Assembly: GCA_039589315.1 (NCBI GenBank)
Contig: JBDHHQ010000010.1
Span: 1 to 64,000, forward strand
Reading direction: 5' to 3'
Length of the DNA stretch: 64,000 nt
Source: Gemmatimonadota bacterium
GTDB lineage: Bacteria; Gemmatimonadota; Gemmatimonadetes; Longimicrobiales; Gaopeijiaceae
The position numbers were made by a program, and so were the translations under genes. A model generated the notes under the pieces. It was not told the DNA's origin. It saw only the letters and a list, made by a program, of their open reading frames with translations, and made no database searches. Each line of letters opens with the position of its first letter. Within the stretch, counting starts at the first letter, position 1. Of the stretch, positions 5,003-64,000 are shown piece after piece.

Positions 5003-5070
5003 GTCTTCTGGAGTCGAGGATGACGTCCAAGAGACGATGACGTGGAGTCGTGTGTGACGAGGAGCCAGGA

Positions 5071-5349
5071 ATGCCCAAGACGGTGAGCTACAGCTACGCC
5101 CGTCAGAACCTCGCCAGTATCCTGAAGGCGGCGGAAGACCGGCAGGAGCCGATCATCATCACCCGCCGCAACCAGGAGGACATGGCGGTTATTCCTTCCT
5201 CGGAGTTGGAGAGACTTCAAGAGACCGCCCACCTTCTTCGGTCTCCCAAGAACGCTCGCCGTCTGCTGCGGGCCCTTCAACGCGCGCTCGACGATACCGT
5301 CTCCCCTCAGAGTGTGAGCGAGCTCCGGGAAGAGGTGGGTGTCGAGTAG
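5071..5349 (+). CDS. yefM: Type II antitoxin, Phd/YefM family
   Basis: SYSYARQNLASIL, EPIIITRR, LQETAHLLRSPKNARRL; RBS upstream of ATG 5071. Confidence 0.95.
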   Translation: MPKTVSYSYARQNLASILKAAEDRQEPIIITRRNQEDMAVIPSSELERLQETAHLLRSPKNARRLLRALQRALDDTVSPQSVSELREEVGVE

Positions 5350-5650
5350 AAGACAGGCACCGCGGAAGGGACAATCCACGGGCGAGGATCGCAGCAGGCT
5401 CTCCGTCTTTCAAGACGAGTTTCGCGAGGATCTGCGGTTCTGGGTCGAAGCCGACCGCAAAGTGGCGGTGCGTGTGCTCAAGCTGGTCGAGGCCCTCATG
5501 CGCGATCCCTTCCGGGGCATCGGCAAGCCCGAGCCTCTGCGGCACCTGGCCGCCAATCTCTGGTCGCGGCGCGTCACGGAGGAGCATCGCCTCGTCTACC
5601 TGGTGCGCGACGACCGAATCGACTTCCTGCAGTGTCGATATCACTACTGA
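5339..5650 (+). CDS. yoeB: Type II toxin, Txe/YoeB family mRNA interferase
   Basis: RDPFRGIGKPEPLRH, WSRRVTEEHRLVY, C-terminal QCRYHY; overlaps the antitoxin 3' end. Confidence 0.95.
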   Translation: MSSRRQAPRKGQSTGEDRSRLSVFQDEFREDLRFWVEADRKVAVRVLKLVEALMRDPFRGIGKPEPLRHLAANLWSRRVTEEHRLVYLVRDDRIDFLQCRYHY

Positions 5651-9274: not shown

Positions 9275-10348
9275 TCAGCCCCCGCCGGGCTCTCTGCCCT
9301 GCACGTACGGCAGGTCGTCCCGGGTGCCCCAGTCGTGCCAGGAACCGTCGTAGAACACCATGTCGTAGCCGAGCATCTGCCCGATCATGTAGTTCACCGA
9401 GGCCCGCAGGCCGATCATGCAGTAGGACACCGTGGTCCCGTCACGCGGCAGATCGGCTGCCGCGAAGAGCGAGGCCAGCTCCTCCCGGTCCCTGAACTTG
9501 GCCGGATTCCCGGGCACGGTGAGGTCTTCCCAGTAGAGCTGCGCGGCACCAGGAATGTGTCCCGGGTTGGCCATGCCCCCCATCCCGCCGTCCTCGCCGG
9601 TGTACTCGTCGTCGGGCCTGGCGTCGAGGAGCCCCACACTCGGGTCGTCGAGCCGTGCCGCGATCCACTCGGCGTCGACCTGCATATCCTCGCGTACCGA
9701 CGCCGTGAAGGTGGCGGCTGCGACCTCCGGGGCAGGCCCCTTCGCCAGCTCACGCCCCTCCTCCTCCCAGGACTGGAGGCCACCGTCGAGGAGGGCGGCC
9801 CGGTGCCCATGACCGAGGTAATCGAGAGTCATCCACAGCCGACCCGTCGTGGTGGTGCGCGTTCCGGTGATTACGACGTAGGTGTCGTTGGACACGCCCA
9901 CGGCAGCCAGCGCCTCTTCCAGCTCGGGCACTGAGCGCAACTCGACGCGCCAGGCCGGATCGCCGTCCCAGGCGATCGCGCTCAACGGCAGGTAGCGGGC
10001 GCCGGGAATACGGCCGTCCGTGTACCGGTCGTCCCGGCCTTCGACCTGCAGGACCACGACGTCGTCCCGGTCCATGTTGGCGGCCAGCCACGCAGTGGAG
10101 ACCAGCGGACTCGTGAACTCTCCGGCCTCCTGGGCGATGAGCGGGTCCTCGGCCGATGAAGCCCCCTCATTGGCCGGCTCACCGCGGGCGCACCCGGGGA
10201 GCACCAGCATCACGACTGCCGTGAGGGCCACGCCCAGGTCAGAGCCCTTCGCGAACCGGACGGCGCCCCTCCTCGGGGTTCCACCGTGCGCCTTCCTGGT
10301 CCGCAACGTCGCCGGTCCCGCCGATTCAGGCGTTACGCGTCCCTTCAT
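9275..10348 (-). CDS. Tandem-domain rhodanese/sulfurtransferase, predicted lipoprotein
   Basis: LVSTAWL, GRIPGA, LLDGGL, LLDARP, GHIPGA, active-site loop YCMIGLRAS, YDGSWHDW; lipobox-like LVLPGC; ATGA overlap with the M56 gene. Confidence 0.88.
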   Translation of the reverse strand: MKGRVTPESAGPATLRTRKAHGGTPRRGAVRFAKGSDLGVALTAVVMLVLPGCARGEPANEGASSAEDPLIAQEAGEFTSPLVSTAWLAANMDRDDVVVLQVEGRDDRYTDGRIPGARYLPLSAIAWDGDPAWRVELRSVPELEEALAAVGVSNDTYVVITGTRTTTTGRLWMTLDYLGHGHRAALLDGGLQSWEEEGRELAKGPAPEVAAATFTASVREDMQVDAEWIAARLDDPSVGLLDARPDDEYTGEDGGMGGMANPGHIPGAAQLYWEDLTVPGNPAKFRDREELASLFAAADLPRDGTTVSYCMIGLRASVNYMIGQMLGYDMVFYDGSWHDWGTRDDLPYVQGREPGGG

Positions 10349-11592
10349 CGTCTGCCCCCCTCGTCGTCTTCGGATGCAGCCAGCGGCACCGAGCCTTGGT
10401 ACGCCAACGGCTCCACGCCACCGTTCCGCCGCTCCTGCATCACCGCCATCTCCAGGTCTTGCTCCATGAGGGCTCCGGACGCGTGCCGCGCCGCCGGCTC
10501 CGCGCCGATCAGCGGGACGCACAGGAGGGCTCCAGCGAGCACGAATAGAGCCGGATCGAACCGTCGCCGGGCCATTCCCGGGCCTGAGCCCGCGCGGTCC
10601 GTCAGCCGTCGGGCCCTGCGAACGAGGTCCCCGTCGGTCAGCGCCAGCGCCTGACTCACCGGAGCCGCCGGGCGGAGTCCTTCCAGGGCCAGCAACGACC
10701 GGAGATACGCGGCGGCACCGCCCGGCACCGAGCTGGTCGCCACCTCGTCACAGCAGAACTCCCGCTCCTCCCGGATTCGCCCCACGATCCACCAGTACGC
10801 CGGGTGGTAGTAGAGCACGATCTCGCTGACCGACTGAATCGCGTTCACCAGGAAGTCGTGACGGCGGACGTGGGCCAGCTCGTGAGCGAGAATGGCCTCG
10901 ACCTCCGCCAGCGGCCGGTCCTCGTCGAGCCAGGACGGCAGCAGCACCAGCGGGCGACGCCAGCCGATGAGGCTCGGGACCTGCGCGAGGCGGGAGCGGG
11001 CCAGCCCAACCGGAACGGCGATCCCCATCTCCGAGGCCAGACGCGAGAGCGACCGCGTCCATTCCTGTGGGGCGGTCTCCGCCGTCACCCGCAGCCGCCG
11101 GACCGTGCGCCAGGCCCCGACGGCTCCGACAGCGCGTACGCCCACGCCGAAGAGCCACACCAGGGCCAGCAACGACAGGAGCATGCCCACCCGTACGGCC
11201 TGCTGCCCGGAGATCCAGGGCGGCATCGAGGCTTCGTGGCGCGCCTGGATCGCCGCCGCCGTGGGTACGGCCGTGGCATTGGGGTCCGGGACGTGTCCGA
11301 CGCCCGGCTTGTAGCGGACGCCGTTCTCGATCATCCAGACGTAGTGGTTGTGGCCCTCCCAATGGCCCCGTAGCTCCACCGCGAGCTGAGCCGGCACCGC
11401 CACCAGCACCACGAGGGCTCCACACGCCATTCCGTAGCGAACGGCCGAGGCCCGTCGGCGCAGGACGAAGAACGCCACCGACAGCGCGCCGGCCGCGAGA
11501 CAGCCGATCCACAGAGAGTGGGTCAACACCCATCCGATCTGGTGCAAGGTCGGTGACCCCAAGACTACTCCACCACCCAAACCGCCCATCAC
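10345..11592 (-). CDS. M56 family metallopeptidase (BlaR1/MecR1-like signal transducer) without a penicillin-binding domain
   Basis: GWVLTHSLW, PSLIGWRRPLVLLP, zinc motif AHELAHVRRHD, YYHPAYWW, EREFCCDE. Confidence 0.9.
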   Translation of the reverse strand: MMGGLGGGVVLGSPTLHQIGWVLTHSLWIGCLAAGALSVAFFVLRRRASAVRYGMACGALVVLVAVPAQLAVELRGHWEGHNHYVWMIENGVRYKPGVGHVPDPNATAVPTAAAIQARHEASMPPWISGQQAVRVGMLLSLLALVWLFGVGVRAVGAVGAWRTVRRLRVTAETAPQEWTRSLSRLASEMGIAVPVGLARSRLAQVPSLIGWRRPLVLLPSWLDEDRPLAEVEAILAHELAHVRRHDFLVNAIQSVSEIVLYYHPAYWWIVGRIREEREFCCDEVATSSVPGGAAAYLRSLLALEGLRPAAPVSQALALTDGDLVRRARRLTDRAGSGPGMARRRFDPALFVLAGALLCVPLIGAEPAARHASGALMEQDLEMAVMQERRNGGVEPLAYQGSVPLAASEDDEGGRR

Positions 11593-11984
11593 CCCTCTCC
11601 TTCCAACCGATCCAACAACTGCCTGATTTCCTGGATCTCCGTCGCCGTTGCCGGCCGAGTGGACAGCGCTCTGAGGACCAAGCGACCGGCGGATCCGGAG
11701 AAGCCTCGATCGATCAGCTCGGAGACCAGCCGGGTCTCCGTGCCCTTCTCGGCGACCGCCGGTTCGTACACGTGGCTTCGGGACGATTCGTCACGTTCCA
11801 CGAGGCCCTTCTCATGCATGATCTGCAGGAGCTTGAGGACCGTCGTATACCCCACTTTCCGGTCCTTGCGAAGGTGCTCCAGGACTTCCCGGACTGTCTG
11901 GGGCCCGTCTCTCCAGAGCACTTGCAGGATGGCGAGCTCGGCGTCCGTGGGGAGCGGCAGGCCTGCACGTGTCTCAGGGCTCAT
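11589..11984 (-). CDS. BlaI/MecI/CopY family transcriptional repressor
   Basis: PTDAELAILQVLWRDGPQTVREV, GYTTVLKLLQIMHEKGLV, FSGSAGRLV; overlaps the M56 start. Confidence 0.93.
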   Translation of the reverse strand: MSPETRAGLPLPTDAELAILQVLWRDGPQTVREVLEHLRKDRKVGYTTVLKLLQIMHEKGLVERDESSRSHVYEPAVAEKGTETRLVSELIDRGFSGSAGRLVLRALSTRPATATEIQEIRQLLDRLEGEG

Positions 11985-12125
11985 CGAGTCCTCTCGCAAT
12001 CCTCTTCCACCCTCCAAACGCCCCCCCCACGATCTCGGTCCGGGACCCGATGCCGACACCCGATCGATTCGCATCGGCCGTCGGGCAGTGACCCGGCTTC
12101 TGCCTCGGCGCTCGGCCGGGCGTCA

Positions 12126-15304: not shown

Positions 15305-15658
15305 GTGATCCCGAAACGCCGATGCACCGCGCCCCCAGTGTTGATGTTGCTGGTGATCGGGGCAGCTTGCGCGCCGGCGGCACCCTCCGCATCCAACGAA
15401 TCTGAGGCCGTGACGTACGATACCATAGAGGAGGCCCATGCGGCGCTGACCGAGCGATTGATCGACCGCACGGGAATCGCGGGCACGGCCATCGGCGCAT
15501 GCGACGGGAACCCCTGCCTCAAAGTTTACGTAGTGCGTAGAGACGACCCGGTGCTTGCGGAGGTCCCCTCGACCTTCGGAGGCTACCCCGTCGACATCGA
15601 GGTCAGCGGCGAATTCCGCGCGGGCGGCACCGACCCTGCGGGGTCCGGTGGTGTCTGA
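15305..15658 (+). CDS. Small predicted lipoprotein; stand-alone homologue of the N-terminal domain of the adjacent protease
   Basis: KRR + hydrophobic stretch + GAAC lipobox-like site; domain IEEAH..LTERLIDRTGIAG..G..GNPCLKVYV..PSTFGGYPV.IEVSG.FRA. Start uncertain. Confidence 0.75.
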   Translation: MIPKRRCTAPPVLMLLVIGAACAPAAPSASNESEAVTYDTIEEAHAALTERLIDRTGIAGTAIGACDGNPCLKVYVVRRDDPVLAEVPSTFGGYPVDIEVSGEFRAGGTDPAGSGGV

Positions 15659-15692
15659 TGGAGAAGGCAGAACCTGACGAAGGGATGGACTT

Positions 15693-16850
15693 TTGAGCGC
15701 GTTCGAGATCCCCCTCAAAAGGACGTTCGCCTGGCTTCGGGCGTTCCTGATCCCCGCCGCACGGTTCGGCGTGCGCGGCGCGATCATCATCTATGGGGCC
15801 GTGCTGCTGTTCGCCGGTATCTGGCTCGATTGGTTCGGCGACGGCCCGCCGCCCGTACCCGGGAGCGGCCTGTCAATCTCGGTGATGGAGGTGCCCCAGG
15901 AAGCGCTCGATCGGGCGTTTACGGCCCACGCGACCCACGCCGGCTCGCTCCTCGACCGTCCGGGGGTCGTCGCCGCCGGCGTCGGGCTGGACGCCACGGG
16001 CCAGCCGGCCCTCAAGGTCTATGTGACCGAGGCCGCCGCCATCAGCCTGCCCGCCACCCTGGACGGCGTGCCCGTCACCCTGGACGTGGCCGGCGAGATC
16101 TGGGCGCTCCAGGACGCGCCTGCCACCTTCTGCCCCGACTGTGGTGACGCCCGGGACGAGACAGCCGACGCCAAGCCGGCGTCCCGTTTCGACCGGCCCG
16201 TTCCCATCGGCGTATCCGCAGGCCACCCATCCATCACGGCCGGGACCATCGGAGCCCGCGTCACCGACGGGTCGAAGGTGTTCGCGCTGAGCAACAATCA
16301 CGTGTTCGCGGCCGAGAACCGGGCCAACCTCAACGATCACGTGCTCCAGCCGGGTCCGGTGGACGGAGGCGTCAACCCGGGTGACGCCATCGGTACGCTC
16401 GTGGATTACGAGCCAGTTGAGTTCTCGTTCGGGTCGTCGAACCGCATGGACGCCGCCATCGCCTTGTCCACGCCCGAGAACCTGGGCAACTCGACGCCCG
16501 AGGAGGGTTACGGAACCCCCCGGTCGGAGACCGTCAGCCCCCGGATCGGGCTCAAGGTCAAGAAGTTCGGCCGCACCACCGGCCACACGCACGGCTCCAT
16601 CGATGCCATCATGGCCACGGTGAACGTGCGCTATCACCAGGGACAGGCGCGGTTCGTGAATCAGATCCTGATCAAGCCCGGCAACTTCAGCGCCGGCGGC
16701 GACTCGGGATCGCTCGTCGTCGCCGACGGCGGGAGCGACGACAACAAGCCGGTCGGCCTGGTCTTCGCCGGCAGTACCATCGTGAGCATCGCCAACCCCA
16801 TCGACCCGATTCTGGAGCGATTCGGGGTCACCATCGACGGAAGCGACTAG
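15693..16850 (+). CDS. Membrane-anchored trypsin-like (PA clan/S1, NAL1-like) serine protease
   Basis: N-terminal TM (GAIIIYGAVLLFAGIWL); catalytic-triad motifs LSNNH, MDAA, GDSGS; also GTIGA, LQPG, KFGRTTGHTHG, VGLVFAGS. Confidence 0.85.
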   Translation: MSAFEIPLKRTFAWLRAFLIPAARFGVRGAIIIYGAVLLFAGIWLDWFGDGPPPVPGSGLSISVMEVPQEALDRAFTAHATHAGSLLDRPGVVAAGVGLDATGQPALKVYVTEAAAISLPATLDGVPVTLDVAGEIWALQDAPATFCPDCGDARDETADAKPASRFDRPVPIGVSAGHPSITAGTIGARVTDGSKVFALSNNHVFAAENRANLNDHVLQPGPVDGGVNPGDAIGTLVDYEPVEFSFGSSNRMDAAIALSTPENLGNSTPEEGYGTPRSETVSPRIGLKVKKFGRTTGHTHGSIDAIMATVNVRYHQGQARFVNQILIKPGNFSAGGDSGSLVVADGGSDDNKPVGLVFAGSTIVSIANPIDPILERFGVTIDGSD

Positions 16851-16858
16851 GGACCACC

Positions 16859-17077
16859 ATGGCGAAGCGAGGGATTGAAGACGCACATCGGAAGCTGACG
16901 GACCGCATCATCGACCTGCCGGGCATCGCAGGGGTCGGCGTGGGGTCCCGCAGAGGGAAGCCGTGCCTCAAGGTCTACGTGGAGACCGGTGGGTCGGCGC
17001 TGCGCAGCAAGATTCCGTCTTCCGTGCTCGGGTTCCCGGTTGCGGTGGAGAAGTCCGGACCGATCCGGGCCCAGTGA
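16859..17077 (+). CDS. Small basic protein without signal peptide; second stand-alone homologue of the protease N-terminal domain
   Basis: IEDAH.KLTDRIIDLPGIAGVGVG..GKPCLKVYV..PSSVLGFPV.VEKSGPIRA; ATG 8 nt after the protease stop, with AGGGA RBS. Confidence 0.8.
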   Translation: MAKRGIEDAHRKLTDRIIDLPGIAGVGVGSRRGKPCLKVYVETGGSALRSKIPSSVLGFPVAVEKSGPIRAQ

Positions 17078-23483: not shown

Positions 23484-25073
23484 CTACTGAGCGCCTGCCA
23501 GCCCGCCGTGTTTCTCGGCCTTGTCCAGGATCTCCTGGATCAACGGCCAGTAGTTGACGGCTCCGGCGGCGCCGACACCGTACGCGGCCTCGACGGCGTC
23601 CTGGCTGCCGATGAGCAGCGCCTCGACCAGGAACGGGTTGTGGGTGGAGGATCCCGTCACGTCCTCGAGGGCCGGGTTGTCTCCCGGCTCCGTGGACCCC
23701 TCGTTGGGGAACTGGGCCAGGTTCACGTTGAAGAACGCGCCCTCGGCGACGGTGAACTTGCCGTCCGTGGCGTCGATCTCACCTCCGGGCTCCTCCAGAT
23801 TCGGATCTACCTCCCAGAGCAGGTCCAGCACCGTGCCGGACCGGTCGGCGATCCGCGTACTCGCTACCGTGAGCGCCGACGCGGCCACCTGCTCCGTTCC
23901 GTGGCAACCGGAGGCCGTGCACGCCCCAAAGGTGCGCTCGTCCGTCGTGTACTCGCAGTCACCGGCCACCGGGATCCCCTGCTCGTCAGTGCACGGCACC
24001 GAGGTGAACAGGTGACCCGTCGAGGTAAACACGAACTCGCCGGTCTCGTCGTCGGTGACGTCGTAGCTGTTCACATGGCACGTGGCGCAGAAGCCCGGGT
24101 TGGCTGCGGTGCCGTGAGTGCCCAGGATCTGGCCCTGGTCGATCTCCAGATCGGGCGGGAACCAGCCGGCCTCGCCCAGGAGCAGCGCCGGCTCGGGCGC
24201 GTGGGGCGCCAGACCGTGGGACGAGTTGGGATCCGGGGCGGTGCGCCGGTTGTGACACTTCGCGCACAGGTTGTTCTCGATGGACGGTGAGGAAGCCGCG
24301 AACCGCACCTGCCCCTCGTTGTCCGATCCGTGGGGATTGTGGCAGACGCCGCAGGTCGTGGGCAGCGCCTCCTCGAATTTCTCCACGTAGTTCCCGTTCG
24401 CGCCCCACGCCACCAGGGCACCCTGGCCCTTGTGGCAGCCGGCGCACTCCTCTCGCCCCGCCGCGAAGCCCACGACGCTGGCGTGCGACGACTGGGACCA
24501 GTCCTCGATGAACGGGTGGTGCGAGCCGCTGTGGCACTCGCCGCAGCTCAAGAACTCGTCGTTCTCGCCCAGCACCTTCAAGCTGGCGAGCGGGCTCGCG
24601 GACGATGGGACGTCGATGTGGGACTGGCCCGCGCCATGGCAGCTCTCGCAGCCCACGTCGTGGTAGCGGGCGTCCCCGGTCGCGCTCCAGGCGACGCTGC
24701 CCGTGGCGGCGTTCCCCAGCGCGCTCACGGTATGGCAGCCCTCGCAGAACTCCTGCGCGTGGCCGCTGTTTTGTAGCCCCGCCCAGGCGTCGGCGTGTGC
24801 GGTCGTGACCCACCTGCTCTGGGCGCTGGCGTGGCACTGGCCGCAGGCCTGGGCCGGCGAGGCGTCGGAGTCCCTGTACCCCACGAACCCTGCCGCACCC
24901 TCCGGAATCGGCTGGTAGACTGGACGGTCCACCTCGACCTCGACCGTGTCCGTCACGATCAAGGTGTCGGTGACTGTAACGATCTGGGTCTCGGTCTTGG
25001 TCTCACATCCGGCGAGAGCCAGGAGGGCGGCGACGGGGAGAAGACAGTATGACAGTAGCTTCGGAGATCGCAT
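23484..25073 (-). CDS. Multiheme cytochrome c lipoprotein (8 CXXCH + 1 CX4CH)
   Basis: Lipobox LAGC; CGQCH, CEGCH, CESCH, CGECH, CAGCH, CGVCH, CAKCH, CATCH, CTASGCH; AAGGAG RBS. Confidence 0.93.
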   Translation of the reverse strand: MRSPKLLSYCLLPVAALLALAGCETKTETQIVTVTDTLIVTDTVEVEVDRPVYQPIPEGAAGFVGYRDSDASPAQACGQCHASAQSRWVTTAHADAWAGLQNSGHAQEFCEGCHTVSALGNAATGSVAWSATGDARYHDVGCESCHGAGQSHIDVPSSASPLASLKVLGENDEFLSCGECHSGSHHPFIEDWSQSSHASVVGFAAGREECAGCHKGQGALVAWGANGNYVEKFEEALPTTCGVCHNPHGSDNEGQVRFAASSPSIENNLCAKCHNRRTAPDPNSSHGLAPHAPEPALLLGEAGWFPPDLEIDQGQILGTHGTAANPGFCATCHVNSYDVTDDETGEFVFTSTGHLFTSVPCTDEQGIPVAGDCEYTTDERTFGACTASGCHGTEQVAASALTVASTRIADRSGTVLDLLWEVDPNLEEPGGEIDATDGKFTVAEGAFFNVNLAQFPNEGSTEPGDNPALEDVTGSSTHNPFLVEALLIGSQDAVEAAYGVGAAGAVNYWPLIQEILDKAEKHGGLAGAQ

Positions 25074-60209: not shown

Positions 60210-61838
60210 TCACCGCCGCTCCAGCAGTTCCAATGCCCGGCTCAGGAGCGTCGGGTAGTACTCGGCCGCATTCGCGCGGGTCAGGGGGACCCATTCGTCC
60301 ACCGGGGCCGGATTGCCCTCGCTGATCTCGCCGTTCGGCCGGATGGTATGACCGATGGACCACATGAACTCCGCCACCGGCCGGTCGGTGCCGGGCATGA
60401 TCAGCACCTCTTCCCACTCCCAGGTGTTGGAGTAGCCGCCGGCGGGCATCCCGACGATGGGGCCCAGGTCGTTGTCGGCCACGATGGCAGCGAACTGGTC
60501 CAGGTGAGAGCCGCCGTCGGGGCCGAGCAGCACTACCAGCCGGCCGGTGAAGTGAACGGGTGCAGGCTGGAGCACGCCGTCGGAGTCCCTCGGGGCGTGG
60601 GCCAGTTTGAACGGCACGTCGTCGGTATAGTCGCGTCCGTCGGCGATGGCCGCAGACACGTCGGTTTCCAGCCAGTCGAGCAGCCAGCGGCCGTTGTCGT
60701 CCGCCTCCTGGACGCCGCTGTCCAGCAACTGACCGGTCGCCTCTTTGGCCTGCTCGACGAACGAGACGCCCGCGTCGCTGAGTCGGAGGTTTCCGAACGT
60801 GGTCTTGAACGGCTTGGGCGACAGACGACGCACCGTATAGGCCCCCCGCGAGCCACCGCCGCTTCGGGTGGCGTCGAAGATCACGTCGTGGTCCAAACGG
60901 CCCTGCTCCTCGGCCCAGGCCATCAGCCGGTCCACGTCCTCCACCATGTGCTCCCGAAAGCCCACCCACGAGATCAGCAGGACGGAGTGATCGTCCGACT
61001 CATAGAGCGTGTAGGTCGGAGTCTCGTAGACCTGCGTGAAGCCGGGGTAGCGGGGCTCGCCCCGGTTGCCCCAAACCAGGTCGGCCGCCGAGCGATAGGG
61101 CAAATCGAGAGCGTAGCGCTCGCCGCCCGTCCGCTCGAGCTCCACGGCCAGCCCCTCCTCATACATGGCCGGCGGGAGCACCGCGCTCCGTTGCGGGAGG
61201 AGTTGGGCGAGCTTCCAGCGCAGCCCCTCGTCAGTCGAGTGCCGCATGTATGGCGCCGCGGCCTGGTACCACGCCTCGGCGGAGCGGCCGTTAACGGCAA
61301 CCAGCCTGTCGCCCACCGCGACGCCTGCATTCGAGACGCCGGCGTCTTCCGCCCAATCGATCAGGAAGAAGAACGGCTCGTTGGGGTTCTCGTAGTCGGG
61401 AGCGAACCGGACCGGTGCATGGGCGGGGTCGGGCGTGGCAGGAAGGCCGCCGGCCACCCGCAACCCGTCCTTGAAGGCTGGATCGAGGCCTCCTTCCACG
61501 AGCTGCACGCTCAGATGCCGGTCGCGCCTGGCGGCAGACAGCTTGGCGAGAGCGTGGTACAGCGCCTGGTCGTCGTCCGCCGCCACCACCTCGTCGCGCA
61601 CGGCCCGCATGGCGGCTACCACGTCCAGCCCGAGACGTTCGTTCTTCACGGGTGAGAACGCCTCGCGCCGTATCGTCCGCGCCAGGATCGTGTCGAACAG
61701 CGCCGCCCGCTGCTCGGGCGTGCTCGACGCCGCAATGCCGGAGTCGCTGGGGTCCGTTGCCCGCGGCGCACTGGCGCCACGGTCACAGGCCAGTGCGGCC
61801 AACAACAGCACGAGGCAGAAGCAGGTGGTGGGTCTCAT
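60210..61838 (-). CDS. S41-family (tail-specific-like) peptidase lipoprotein with a PDZ-like segment
   Basis: Lipobox ALAC; VGDRLVAVNG; IFDATRSGGG; LLGPDGGSHLDQF; IVGMPAGG. Confidence 0.7.
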   Translation of the reverse strand: MRPTTCFCLVLLLAALACDRGASAPRATDPSDSGIAASSTPEQRAALFDTILARTIRREAFSPVKNERLGLDVVAAMRAVRDEVVAADDDQALYHALAKLSAARRDRHLSVQLVEGGLDPAFKDGLRVAGGLPATPDPAHAPVRFAPDYENPNEPFFFLIDWAEDAGVSNAGVAVGDRLVAVNGRSAEAWYQAAAPYMRHSTDEGLRWKLAQLLPQRSAVLPPAMYEEGLAVELERTGGERYALDLPYRSAADLVWGNRGEPRYPGFTQVYETPTYTLYESDDHSVLLISWVGFREHMVEDVDRLMAWAEEQGRLDHDVIFDATRSGGGSRGAYTVRRLSPKPFKTTFGNLRLSDAGVSFVEQAKEATGQLLDSGVQEADDNGRWLLDWLETDVSAAIADGRDYTDDVPFKLAHAPRDSDGVLQPAPVHFTGRLVVLLGPDGGSHLDQFAAIVADNDLGPIVGMPAGGYSNTWEWEEVLIMPGTDRPVAEFMWSIGHTIRPNGEISEGNPAPVDEWVPLTRANAAEYYPTLLSRALELLERR

Positions 61839-61929
61839 GCTCGGTCTACGCGACGGCCGGTGTCGGGGAGCGCAACCCGGCATCTTGCCGTCCCGGTGGC
61901 AGAGGGTGCGGATCTGCGGCCGCCCCACC

Positions 61930-62490
61930 TCAGCCCGGCCACTGCCAGCCGAAGACTCCGGCCGTGAGGAGCGCGTACAGGAAGCCGTCACCCATGTGCT
62001 TCCACACGAAGGACCATGGACGCCCGAACCAGATGGCGTCCTGGACGACGCCCCAGCTGTACGCCACCCACGTCACGGTGCCCACGATGCGGAAGACTGC
62101 CAGATAGTCGGCGCCGGAATCCAGGGTGCGGGTGGCGATGTACGCCGCCAGCCCACTCACCGCCAGATAGTAGACGAACGACTGGGCGAGCTTTCCGCCC
62201 ATGGTCGGCACGCCGTTGGGCAGCACCGTCAGGAACGCCACCGGGCCGTTTTCGAACTTCCCCTTGACGTCCGGGTCTGCCAGTTCGGCCTGAGACGCGG
62301 CGTGGGGGATGTTGTACTGACCGGGAGCCAGGTTCTGGGGACGGAGCACACCGATGGCGGCGTCTTCGTCGGGTAGCTTCTGGAAGTCCGACTTGTGGTG
62401 GGGGAGCGCCATCCAGACCAGTGCGCTGGCGATGAACACCAGAACGGCCGAGAGAACGATGGCTAGCCAGAGTGAGCCGATCGTAACCAT
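61930..62490 (-). CDS. Conserved-looking hypothetical membrane protein
   Basis: Four TM segments; WMALPHH..DF, PGQY..P, GPVA, IWFGRPW, DGFLYAL. Confidence 0.7.
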   Translation of the reverse strand: MVTIGSLWLAIVLSAVLVFIASALVWMALPHHKSDFQKLPDEDAAIGVLRPQNLAPGQYNIPHAASQAELADPDVKGKFENGPVAFLTVLPNGVPTMGGKLAQSFVYYLAVSGLAAYIATRTLDSGADYLAVFRIVGTVTWVAYSWGVVQDAIWFGRPWSFVWKHMGDGFLYALLTAGVFGWQWPG

Positions 62491-62572
62491 GGTCAACCTC
62501 GCTGCGTGAAGGGAACGTCAGCGGAACCGCGGCATCTGGACTCCGATGTCGGTCCGACAATGTGCACGCCGA

Positions 62573-64000
62573 TCAGCTCACGGGCACCCCCCTGTGGGTC
62601 GTGGCCCGCTGGATGGCGTTGAAGAGGAGCTTGTAGGTACCCCGTGCCTGGCCGCGGTGCTGGGGCCGGAATCCGAACAGCACCACCCTCCCCTGGCCCA
62701 ACCCGACATTCACCAGGGCGGGGCGGCCGGCCAGATGCCGCTCCTCGCCCATGGCCCAACCGCTCAGCAGGAGGTCGTCGTGAGCATAGGTGCTCACCAC
62801 CTCCACCGGCGGCGCCTCGGCTTCGGGAATGTCCTCACGCCCTCCCTCACCCGCCCGCGGCAAGCGTACCGGCTCGAAGGCCCTACCCTGAGAGAAGAAC
62901 GCCGCCACCTGAGGCTGCATGCCGCCGCTCAGCGGATGATCCGTGTCCACGTCCATGCGGATCAGGGATCCGGGAATGAAGAACTCCTCCGGGGGAAGAT
63001 CGCCCAGAGAGTTCCGCACTGGCAGGCCGAAGTGCTCGATGGGGAGGTCGGTGGAGGCGTCGAAGGCGATGAGCGTCCCCCCGTCCTCCACGAAGGCCTT
63101 GAGCCGTGCCGTGCCCTCTGCCCCGACGCCTCCCACGTACGCCTCGGGCATGATCCCCGGCAGGTTGCCGAGAAAGATCTCGTCGCCGGGGTGATTGGGC
63201 AGGACGATGGCGTCGTAGCGCGACAGGTCGCCAGTGCGGATGTCGGCGTCGTGGAGGGTGTCCACGACGAAGTCCGCCTGCTCCAGCACCCAAAGAGTCC
63301 ACCCCTGGTCGTCGACCCTGGAGTGCCACGCCTTGTACAACCCCACGCGGGGCAGCCGCAGCTCTGCCGTCGGGACGCCGGGATCGGCCGCCAAGCCCGC
63401 GAACGCCACACCCAGGTCGCGAGCCAGGTCGGACACCGCCCCCTGCACCCCGCTGCCCGCATGCACGATGAACGTGCCGGCGGCCAGCGCTCCTGCCCCC
63501 GGCGCCGCGTCCGTGACCGAGACCGCGTGCCCGTCGGCCAGCAGTCGGTTCACCGCGGTAAACGCGGCGTTCGAGCCGGCGCCGAGAGCGTACCCGAAGC
63601 CGGGATCCCCGGACACCGACCCCGGATCCACTGTCGTCAGCCCGGCGATCTCCTCCATCGGGGTCTCGAAGGGAGCGTCGATCCGTTCGACGCGGACCCC
63701 CATCTGGAGGGGCAGCGTCCAACCCGCCAGATCGTACGGCGTCTCGGGCGGACCGCCGGGGTAGCGCTGCCGCTCCGGGTAGTTGCGGGGCTCCATCAGG
63801 TTGACCACGTGCGGCCGAAACGCCTGACCGGCGAGAACGATGTACGACCCCTCCGGGTACTCGGCGCCGCCGGCGTCGAAGCGGTCCGTGGCCCGGTGCA
63901 CCTCGACGCCGGAATGGCGGAACACGTTGACCAGGTTCACCGCCTCGCTGGGATCCCACTGGTCGGGGGGGATCACGTACGCGTACGGTCCTCCCGCTTG
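62573..64000 (-). CDS. C-terminal part of an M14 zinc-carboxypeptidase-family protein (5' end outside window)
   Basis: GVEVHRA, QAFRPH, PYDLAGWTLPLQMGV, DQGWT.W, GRVVLFGFRPQHRGQ..GTYKLLFN; the frame is open to the window edge. Catalytic domain not visible. Confidence 0.8.
   Translation of the reverse strand, partial: QAGGPYAYVIPPDQWDPSEAVNLVNVFRHSGVEVHRATDRFDAGGAEYPEGSYIVLAGQAFRPHVVNLMEPRNYPERQRYPGGPPETPYDLAGWTLPLQMGVRVERIDAPFETPMEEIAGLTTVDPGSVSGDPGFGYALGAGSNAAFTAVNRLLADGHAVSVTDAAPGAGALAAGTFIVHAGSGVQGAVSDLARDLGVAFAGLAADPGVPTAELRLPRVGLYKAWHSRVDDQGWTLWVLEQADFVVDTLHDADIRTGDLSRYDAIVLPNHPGDEIFLGNLPGIMPEAYVGGVGAEGTARLKAFVEDGGTLIAFDASTDLPIEHFGLPVRNSLGDLPPEEFFIPGSLIRMDVDTDHPLSGGMQPQVAAFFSQGRAFEPVRLPRAGEGGREDIPEAEAPPVEVVSTYAHDDLLLSGWAMGEERHLAGRPALVNVGLGQGRVVLFGFRPQHRGQARGTYKLLFNAIQRATTHRGVPVS

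Follow-up and report, generated by a model that had tools for sequence, protein, structure and literature searches.

Free copies of a NAL1-type N-terminal domain beside serine proteases of Gemmatimonadota: a three-gene bracket that is most likely two joined cassettes minus one protease

The stretch of DNA analysed here (the window) comprises positions 1 to 64,000 of contig JBDHHQ010000010.1 from a Gemmatimonadota bacterium (assembly GCA_039589315.1). Three adjacent, co-oriented genes in the window encode a NAL1-like clan PA serine protease (B) and, on either side of it, a small protein carrying a free copy of the N-terminal domain of that protease (A and C):

15305..15658, + strand: ORF A, 117 aa, lipoprotein-type free domain copy (A-type)
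15693..16850, + strand: ORF B, 385 aa, NAL1-like clan PA serine protease, type II
15771..15827, + strand: predicted single transmembrane or signal-anchor segment of B, approximately residues 27–45
15888..16109, + strand: N-terminal domain of B, approximately residues 66–139, homologue of the NAL1 ATP-binding/trimerisation domain
16173..16847, + strand: catalytic domain of B, with His203 at 16299–16301, Asp253 at 16449–16451 and Ser338 at 16704–16706
16859..17077, + strand: ORF C, 72 aa, signal-less basic free domain copy (C-type)

The gaps are 34 nt between A and B and 8 nt between B and C. Upstream lies an alkyltransferase-like gene (PF01035), only 28 nt from A, and downstream a DUF4837 gene; a promoter and terminator scan found neither. 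Compared with locus L001, which has the same gene order, A shows 24 synonymous and 13 non-synonymous codon changes, B 82 and 30, and C 17 and 5, showing that all three genes are under purifying selection. A read-through fusion of B and C was rejected because C is out of frame in the window and the relative frame differs among loci. Elsewhere in the window, we noted an ordinary YefM/YoeB type II toxin–antitoxin pair (5050–5650), an ordinary pair of BlaI/BlaR1-like repressor and M56 peptidase (10348–12074, − strand), a multiheme cytochrome c-like protein with Cytochrome_C7 and MtrC/MtrF-like matches (23487–25073, − strand) and three ORFs of 593, 188 and 467 aa that matched no Pfam family at E≤1e-6 (60213–63976, − strand).

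An earlier note on this DNA had proposed that the three ORFs share one domain and that A and C are free paralogues of the N-terminal domain of the protease. We found that this is the case. The common domain of about 70 residues has 18 invariant columns, with identities of 48% (A–C), 37% (A–B) and 36% (B–C) and BLAST E values between copies of 1e-8 to 1e-20 (three-protein database). A profile of the three copies matched only A, B and C in the 6.67-Mb genome, the next best match having an E of 0.58. The contrast drawn in the note between an acidic A, with lipobox and cysteine pair, and a basic, signal-less C also held: A has a lipobox cysteine (Cys22), an acidic domain (residues 41–106, pI 4.5) and a Cys66/Cys71 pair, whereas C has a pI of 10.4, no N-terminal extension and a single conserved cysteine (Cys36), and ends six residues past its last conserved glycine. 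One cysteine is specific to free copies, as none of 97 fused copies has one at that position. A-types keep it together with its disulfide mate in 50 of 62 cases and have lost both in 9, and C-types keep it without the mate in 49 of 50. A stop six residues after the last glycine occurs in 29 of the 50 C-types, compared with 13 of 62 A-types; that this end mimics the tail of a cleaved pro-region is a lead only, as a minimal domain would end at the same point too.

B matches Pfam Nal1_C (PF25819) at E 1e-6 (28.6 bits, curated cut-off 26.1), as do all 119 of its homologues (E≤1), 110 of which also give weak Peptidase_S64 matches. The intact-looking catalytic motifs noticed earlier are indeed conserved: all 119 aligned homologues have H203, D253 and S338. 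When the structure model of B (pLDDT 87, residues 8–47 modelled as helix) was used in a Foldseek search, rice NAL1 ranked first (E 7e-16), and residues 66–385 of the model could be superposed on residues 88–447 of NAL1 (Z 24.1, rmsd 3.7, 294 residues); alpha-lytic/SGPB-type enzymes gave Z 18–19 and covered the catalytic part alone. The N-terminal anchor described in the note corresponds to a predicted hydrophobic segment at about residues 27–45, with a hydropathy maximum of 2.0 at residue 27 and no lipobox. The flank of this segment in the L001 orthologue is basic on the N side and not on the C side, and we infer that B is anchored in the membrane with its catalytic domain exported. A CxxC motif in the flexible linker of B (window positions 16131–16142) is kept in L001 and L114 and is absent from the 65%-identical orthologue in L113.

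The shared domain is homologous to NAL1_N (PF25608), a relationship that emerged from intermediate profiles and structure. There was no direct Pfam match to PF25608 in A, B or C, and A and C received no direct Pfam or NCBIfam assignment. The profile of the window domain aligned with a set of eight N-domains from cytoplasmic relatives at a probability of 98.8 (E 7.7e-17). This set in turn found NAL1 among PDB sequences at E 8e-5 and nothing else at E≤10, and six of its eight members match PF25608. The superposition of the B model on NAL1 begins at NAL1 residue 88, and so includes the N-domain. Searched against PDB sequences, the domain profile itself gave nothing below E 0.4; the C model gave nothing at E≤0.001 in Foldseek, and NAL1 was not among its best 50 matches in a wide fold search. 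ESM Atlas clusters of NAL1_N type, with scores of 0.81 and 0.78, are leads only. In the accessible part of the report on NAL1 (PMC12012508), residues 89–172 form an uncleaved domain with structural ATP binding that contacts the protease domain of the neighbouring subunit in a trimer; a hexamer or higher assembly is needed for activity, and disrupting the N-domain causes aggregation and loss of activity. We checked the ATP-binding residues of rice NAL1 (R120, R122, K123, K139 and D166) by chained, not direct, alignments, in which the ATP-binding hairpin falls in a six-column gap of the window copies and C has Gly and Ala opposite K139 and D166; by these alignments, the window copies appear to lack the hairpin.

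The earlier note had called A and C pro-domain paralogues. The C model superposed on residues 24–93 of the alpha-lytic pro region (2PRO) with Z 5.4 (rmsd 2.1, 64 residues) and on the free prodomain-like protein 4HLB with Z 4.6, but both were tied with unrelated folds. The PF02983 profile had no match in the genome, and its control likewise matched nowhere. Linkers in the exported protease types are 14 to 60 residues long. The shared domain is possibly pro-region-like in a loose sense, and 'pro-domain' is an interpretation; the closest solved homologue is an uncleaved oligomerisation domain. Thus, A and C are free paralogues as claimed, but the pro-domain label is no more than possible, the NAL1 trimerisation domain matching far better than the alpha-lytic pro region. 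For the same reason, the alternative offered in the note, an oligomerisation module, deserves more weight.

In a sample of 401 genomes of the phylum, the domain was present in 113 and a protease match (E≤1e-5) in 121; the protease was present in 110 of the 113 domain-positive genomes and absent in 3. Seven of the 11 protease-only genomes were inspected: two have an adjacent free copy by a wider profile, and the other five, whose protease matches are weak (E ~1e-6 to 1e-8), have no free copy adjacent. Among the 150 domain matches listed, out of 233 (one row corrected by hand), 83 were free copies downstream of a protease, 18 free copies upstream and 33 the protease's own domain, whereas 14 lay far from any protease and 2 in protease-less genomes. 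As the note had predicted, stand-alone copies co-localise with NAL1-like proteases: among the matches listed, 99 of 109 phylum genomes carry a free copy, usually one, that is encoded on the protease's strand and lies no more than 5 kb away, although the genomes are related and these counts are not independent events. Free copies on both sides of the protease occurred in 1 of the 109 genomes among the matches listed, the window's own. The A–B–C triple recurs in G408 and L001, which are not independent of each other, and in L113, a metagenome locus. Outside the phylum, the pair was found on a Rubrobacter plasmid (L143), in a Chloroflexota-centred genome (L146) and at metagenome locus L118, a thin multi-phylum occurrence; the domain profile matched 1 of 251 genomes in the Chloroflexota-centred sample. 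Cultured Rubrobacter radiotolerans encodes a pair of the cytoplasmic kind (WP_051590075.1 and WP_041339327.1). A Bacillus plasmid locus had no free domain, and a Rhizobium locus nothing but a weak opposite-strand match. Clustering at 50% gave 4292 domain representatives at E≤1e-3, a count that includes fused copies. None of 11 pattern matches in viral contigs was confirmed as a relative, and a match in L002 was spurious, lying in the opposite frame within a transporter gene.

In a quick domain tree (179 domains, 70 columns; 4 frameshifted or partial sequences were left out), one clade (SH-aLRT 96) united 95 of the 98 free copies with three fused domains of distant cytoplasmic proteases, apart from all other fused copies. 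This grouping suggests that the free form did not arise from a recent duplication but represents an old family that has evolved separately. Free and fused copies alike retain the two core strand motifs. A-type domains also occur as fusions, in frame at the C terminus of a long ORF in L033 (1839–3503, − strand), L036 and L037 (genomes G064, G324 and G342). The L033 ORF matches the six-bladed beta-propeller DUF5128 and NHL, and L036 and L037 have near-identical C-terminal sequence. In L041 (1448–2467, − strand; G120) and L095 (541–2301, + strand; G042), the A-type domain is in frame with a PEBP-family domain (PF01161, E 1.9e-40 in L041); some PEBP proteins have been reported to inhibit serine proteases.

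Several further arrangements were observed. Eight small proteins (P0193–P0196, P0200, P0204, P0243 and P0291), mostly with a signal sequence, consist of two or three tandem A-type domains and could possibly be multivalent binders of a trimer. In L051 and L063 (G347 and G387), a cytoplasmic NAL1_N-type protease is followed by two free domains, one signal-less and acidic and the other lipoprotein-like, which is a second, independent two-partner layout. L056 (1024–2640, − strand; G356) encodes a cytoplasmic NAL1_N-type protease whose repetitive C-terminal tail is rich in K and E; no free partner was seen in the 4 kb covered. At the metagenome locus L115, three NAL1-like proteases with long N-terminal regions of low complexity stand in tandem, and the 5.7 kb of this locus contain no free domain.

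We found that the loci fall into two cassette types. Type I cassettes pair a lipoprotein protease with a lipoprotein partner (A-type) that is mostly acidic or neutral and has the cysteine pair in 50 of 62 cases. Type II cassettes pair a signal-anchored protease without lipobox with a signal-less basic partner (C-type). Of 81 loci classed by script (L002, L003, L063, L069 and L114 were skipped), 44 had a type II protease with a signal-less partner, 27 a type I protease with a signal-bearing partner and 10 were others. Partner class thus equalled protease class in 71 of 81 loci by script and in 77 of 81 after hand reading, by which six of the ten others joined the rule (L080 ambiguously), two, L050 and L125, were exceptions with a type I protease and a signal-less partner, and two were the triples L001 and L113. 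The genomes being related, this matching may reflect few events; type II proteases form three clades in the protease tree and are not resolved as one. The partners at several type II loci cannot carry a signal, because their frame is interrupted by a stop just a few codons upstream of the domain. The type II anchors have a mean of 4.0 basic residues on the N side, versus 0.9, and in 40 of 50 an acidic residue occurs towards the end of the anchor. The catalytic domains contain exactly two cysteines in 48 of 50, although that of B has none and the pair is missing from its lineage. These features point to an N-in topology in which type II catalytic domains are exported. Piggy-back export of C by the Tat route was rejected, as a twin-arginine-like motif is not enriched in type II proteases (9 of 50, compared with 8 of 43 for type I and 8 of 104 in the background). 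A negative correlation between the charges of the partner and of the protease's own N-domain (rho −0.41, n=73) was set aside as confounded by lineage. We also observed type I proteases in open frames of 1100–1400 aa with up to seven CARDB domains (L044, L045, L072, L108 and L109; L044 and L045 matched), with a free domain about 2.4–3 kb downstream except in L072.

Both cassettes can occur in one genome. Of nine genomes inspected at two loci, six have both cassettes, apart from each other, and three have a type II cassette and an orphan A-type. Overall, seven genomes carry both cassettes apart (G435, G487, G514, G537, G427, G442 and G300), and nine carry an orphan A-type and a single type II protease (G064, G130, G224, G324, G342, G367, G415, G472 and G527).

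L113 is the locus that bears most directly on the origin of the bracket. There the order is a type-I-like protease, A, B, C and a DUF4837-like gene, in synteny with the window; its B is 65% identical to that of the window, and its A domain, at 62% identity, is the closest to that of window A after L001. The protease directly before A is a C-terminal fragment cut by the contig end, which groups with type I proteases (support 97, with 33% of columns filled). No second protease of the family was found in the 95%-complete genome of the window, in which B is the only one. B and C look like a standard type II cassette, C being the usual partner of type II proteases, whereas A was probably once paired with a type I (lipoprotein) protease and was retained when that protease was lost. 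Because L113 carries both cassettes in tandem, the bracket most likely represents two joined cassettes minus one protease and not a purpose-built two-compartment system; the simplest history, drawn from this single locus, would be a tandem of type I and type II cassettes followed by loss of the type I protease. The continued conservation of A implies that it still has some role, possibly on B. The idea in the note of A and C as controllers of one protease in two compartments is therefore retained in part. The lipoprotein and signal-less types are real, but dedicated dual control is weakened, because elsewhere each protease has one class-matched partner (77 of 81 loci), as is the view of A as a regulator dedicated to B, because A in L113 follows a type I protease that is absent from the window's genome.

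How might the free domains act? By analogy with other protease systems, we lean slightly towards the free domain being a trans-acting brake on the protease, and a regulatory or inhibitory role is our best guess for both A and C. The free domain would fill the N-domain-binding surface in trans and damp activity, with C as a cytoplasmic guard and A-types acting in the envelope, a picture we hold a little more firmly than its negation. C would bind the catalytic domain of B where the covalently attached N-domain would otherwise sit, at either the site of the neighbouring subunit in a NAL1-like trimer or a pro-region site, and the bound copy would keep the protease inactive. Because C has no signal, it would act at the cytoplasmic side, on protease that is folding or misrouted, as proposed for Spi and the staphostatins. 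A would be the lipoprotein partner of a paralogous type I cassette formerly directly upstream, as in L113; after loss of that protease, it would have been retained, probably to restrain B, or related foreign proteases, on the envelope side. Several observations speak against a brake. The net charges of catalytic domain and partner are not correlated, giving no sign of complementarity (rho 0.04, n=86), a cytoplasmic C and an exported catalytic domain would meet only transiently, L050 and L125 break the class rule, and 14 of the 150 matches listed lie far from any protease.

One possible alternative, unlikely but a real contender, is that the free domains are positive factors, either catalysing folding in trans or serving as structural subunits by which a NAL1-like hetero-oligomer is completed or capped, with C perhaps co-exported while bound to the folded protease. 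The homologous domain of NAL1 is structural, and its disruption leads to aggregation and activity loss in the available text of PMC12012508, and the alpha-lytic pro region folds its enzyme in trans in that of PMC2289522. Proteins with two or three tandem domains (P0193–P0196) exist, and the lone cysteine of 49 of 50 C-types could link to a partner. However, B has its own copy of the domain, the twin-arginine-like motif occurs about as often in type I proteases (8 of 43) as in type II (9 of 50), and orphan A-types persist without a cognate protease. Under a further proposal, which we rate as improbable, the free NAL1_N domains would make up a hitherto undescribed family of clan PA regulators, which cover the oligomer interface and not the active site. 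One class would consist of envelope lipoproteins with a disulfide; in the other, which is cytoplasmic, the lone invariant cysteine would serve as a redox switch or covalent tether. Orphan lipoprotein copies would then provide cross-reactive immunity against related proteases of neighbouring cells, and the locus would regulate a single protease family on either side of the membrane.

It is distinctly improbable that A and C are both dedicated regulators of B that evolved for control in envelope and cytoplasm. The A–B–C order is kept in G408/L001 and also in L113, whose protease is 65% identical, purifying selection acts on A in a 95%-complete genome where B is the sole family protease found, and A is weakly sister to the C group in the domain tree (support 82). 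Yet two-sided copies occur in 1 of 109 phylum genomes among the matches listed, A in L113 follows another protease, and A-types elsewhere adjoin lipoprotein proteases or stand alone. We consider it more doubtful still that the free domains, especially the orphan A-types, are independent of the host protease and serve as a general-purpose binding module or as envelope immunity against foreign NAL1-like proteases. Such a role would fit the nine genomes in which an orphan A-type accompanies just one protease, of type II, the fusions to a beta-propeller protein and a PEBP-family domain and the 4292 representatives at E≤1e-3, but the protease is missing in only 3 of 113 domain-positive genomes, no relatives were found in viral contigs, and A, B and C have no PADLOC match (0 families for 5 of 5 proteins searched against the anti-phage profiles at E≤0.01).

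The regulatory logic of a trans-acting brake, our preferred reading, is known from other protease clans. Rice NARROW LEAF 1 (NAL1; PDB 8PMI, 8PN2 and 7Y77; PF25608 and PF25819) has the same two-domain core, in the same relative position and with the same triad, as B, but in B a membrane anchor replaces the hexamer-forming N-terminal part and the ATP-binding hairpin appears to be missing. Alpha-lytic protease has a catalytic fold like that of B (Z 18–19), although its pro region (2PRO) fits the C model only middlingly (Z 5.4). For neither alpha-lytic protease nor Ssy5 do we know of a separate natural partner gene. Spi resembles the propeptide of SpeB, and stand-alone propeptide-like inhibitors of subtilases fall in MEROPS family I9. 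The accessible part of the NAL1 report mentions no free N-domain partner (PMC12012508). In the available texts, the yeast Ssy5 prodomain (PMC12958826) and the alpha-lytic pro region (PMC2289522; bioRxiv 10.1101/2020.08.30.274340) inhibit or fold in trans. In SpeB–Spi, staphopain–staphostatin and Bacteroides Bfp/Bfi, a small inhibitor gene is co-transcribed with an exported protease, and inhibitors of the Spi and staphostatin type are thought to prevent premature protease activity in the cytoplasm, according to the part of PMC3462683 available. B–C likewise places a small gene beside an exported protease, but SpeB of Streptococcus pyogenes, staphopain and Bfp are papain-like cysteine proteases with folds unrelated to B, and inhibition has been tested in those systems, whereas inhibition of B by C is putative. 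In Plasmodium, SUB1-ProM is a propeptide-like free protein and a potent, selective inhibitor (PMC6993865, accessible part); like A and C, it is a free copy of the protease's own N-terminal domain encoded beside protease genes, but it targets the subtilisin clan, whereas B belongs to clan PA and cleavage of its N-domain is putative. The layout shared by Spi, I9 and SUB1-ProM, a free paralogue of the protease's own N-domain beside the protease, was present here in 99 of 109 genomes among the matches listed. A search of article listings returned nothing on bacterial NAL1-like proteases or their partners. The present analysis adds the two classes with their matched partners, a proposed origin of the bracket by tandem arrangement and loss, the retention of orphans and the lone cysteine.

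The three-gene bracket is the less general part of these results; it is most probably what a limited lineage has kept of two tandem cassettes. Should the free domain prove inhibitory, it would represent an unannotated, widespread family of protease regulators (4292 representatives, fused copies included) and, to our knowledge, the first natural stand-alone N-domain regulator in this branch of clan PA. The pair would also offer a simple bacterial system in which to ask whether the N-domain of NAL1, Ssy5 and alpha-lytic protease is a pro region that is cleaved off or a module for assembly, and it suggests that the isolated N-domain of NAL1 could tune the rice yield protease in trans.
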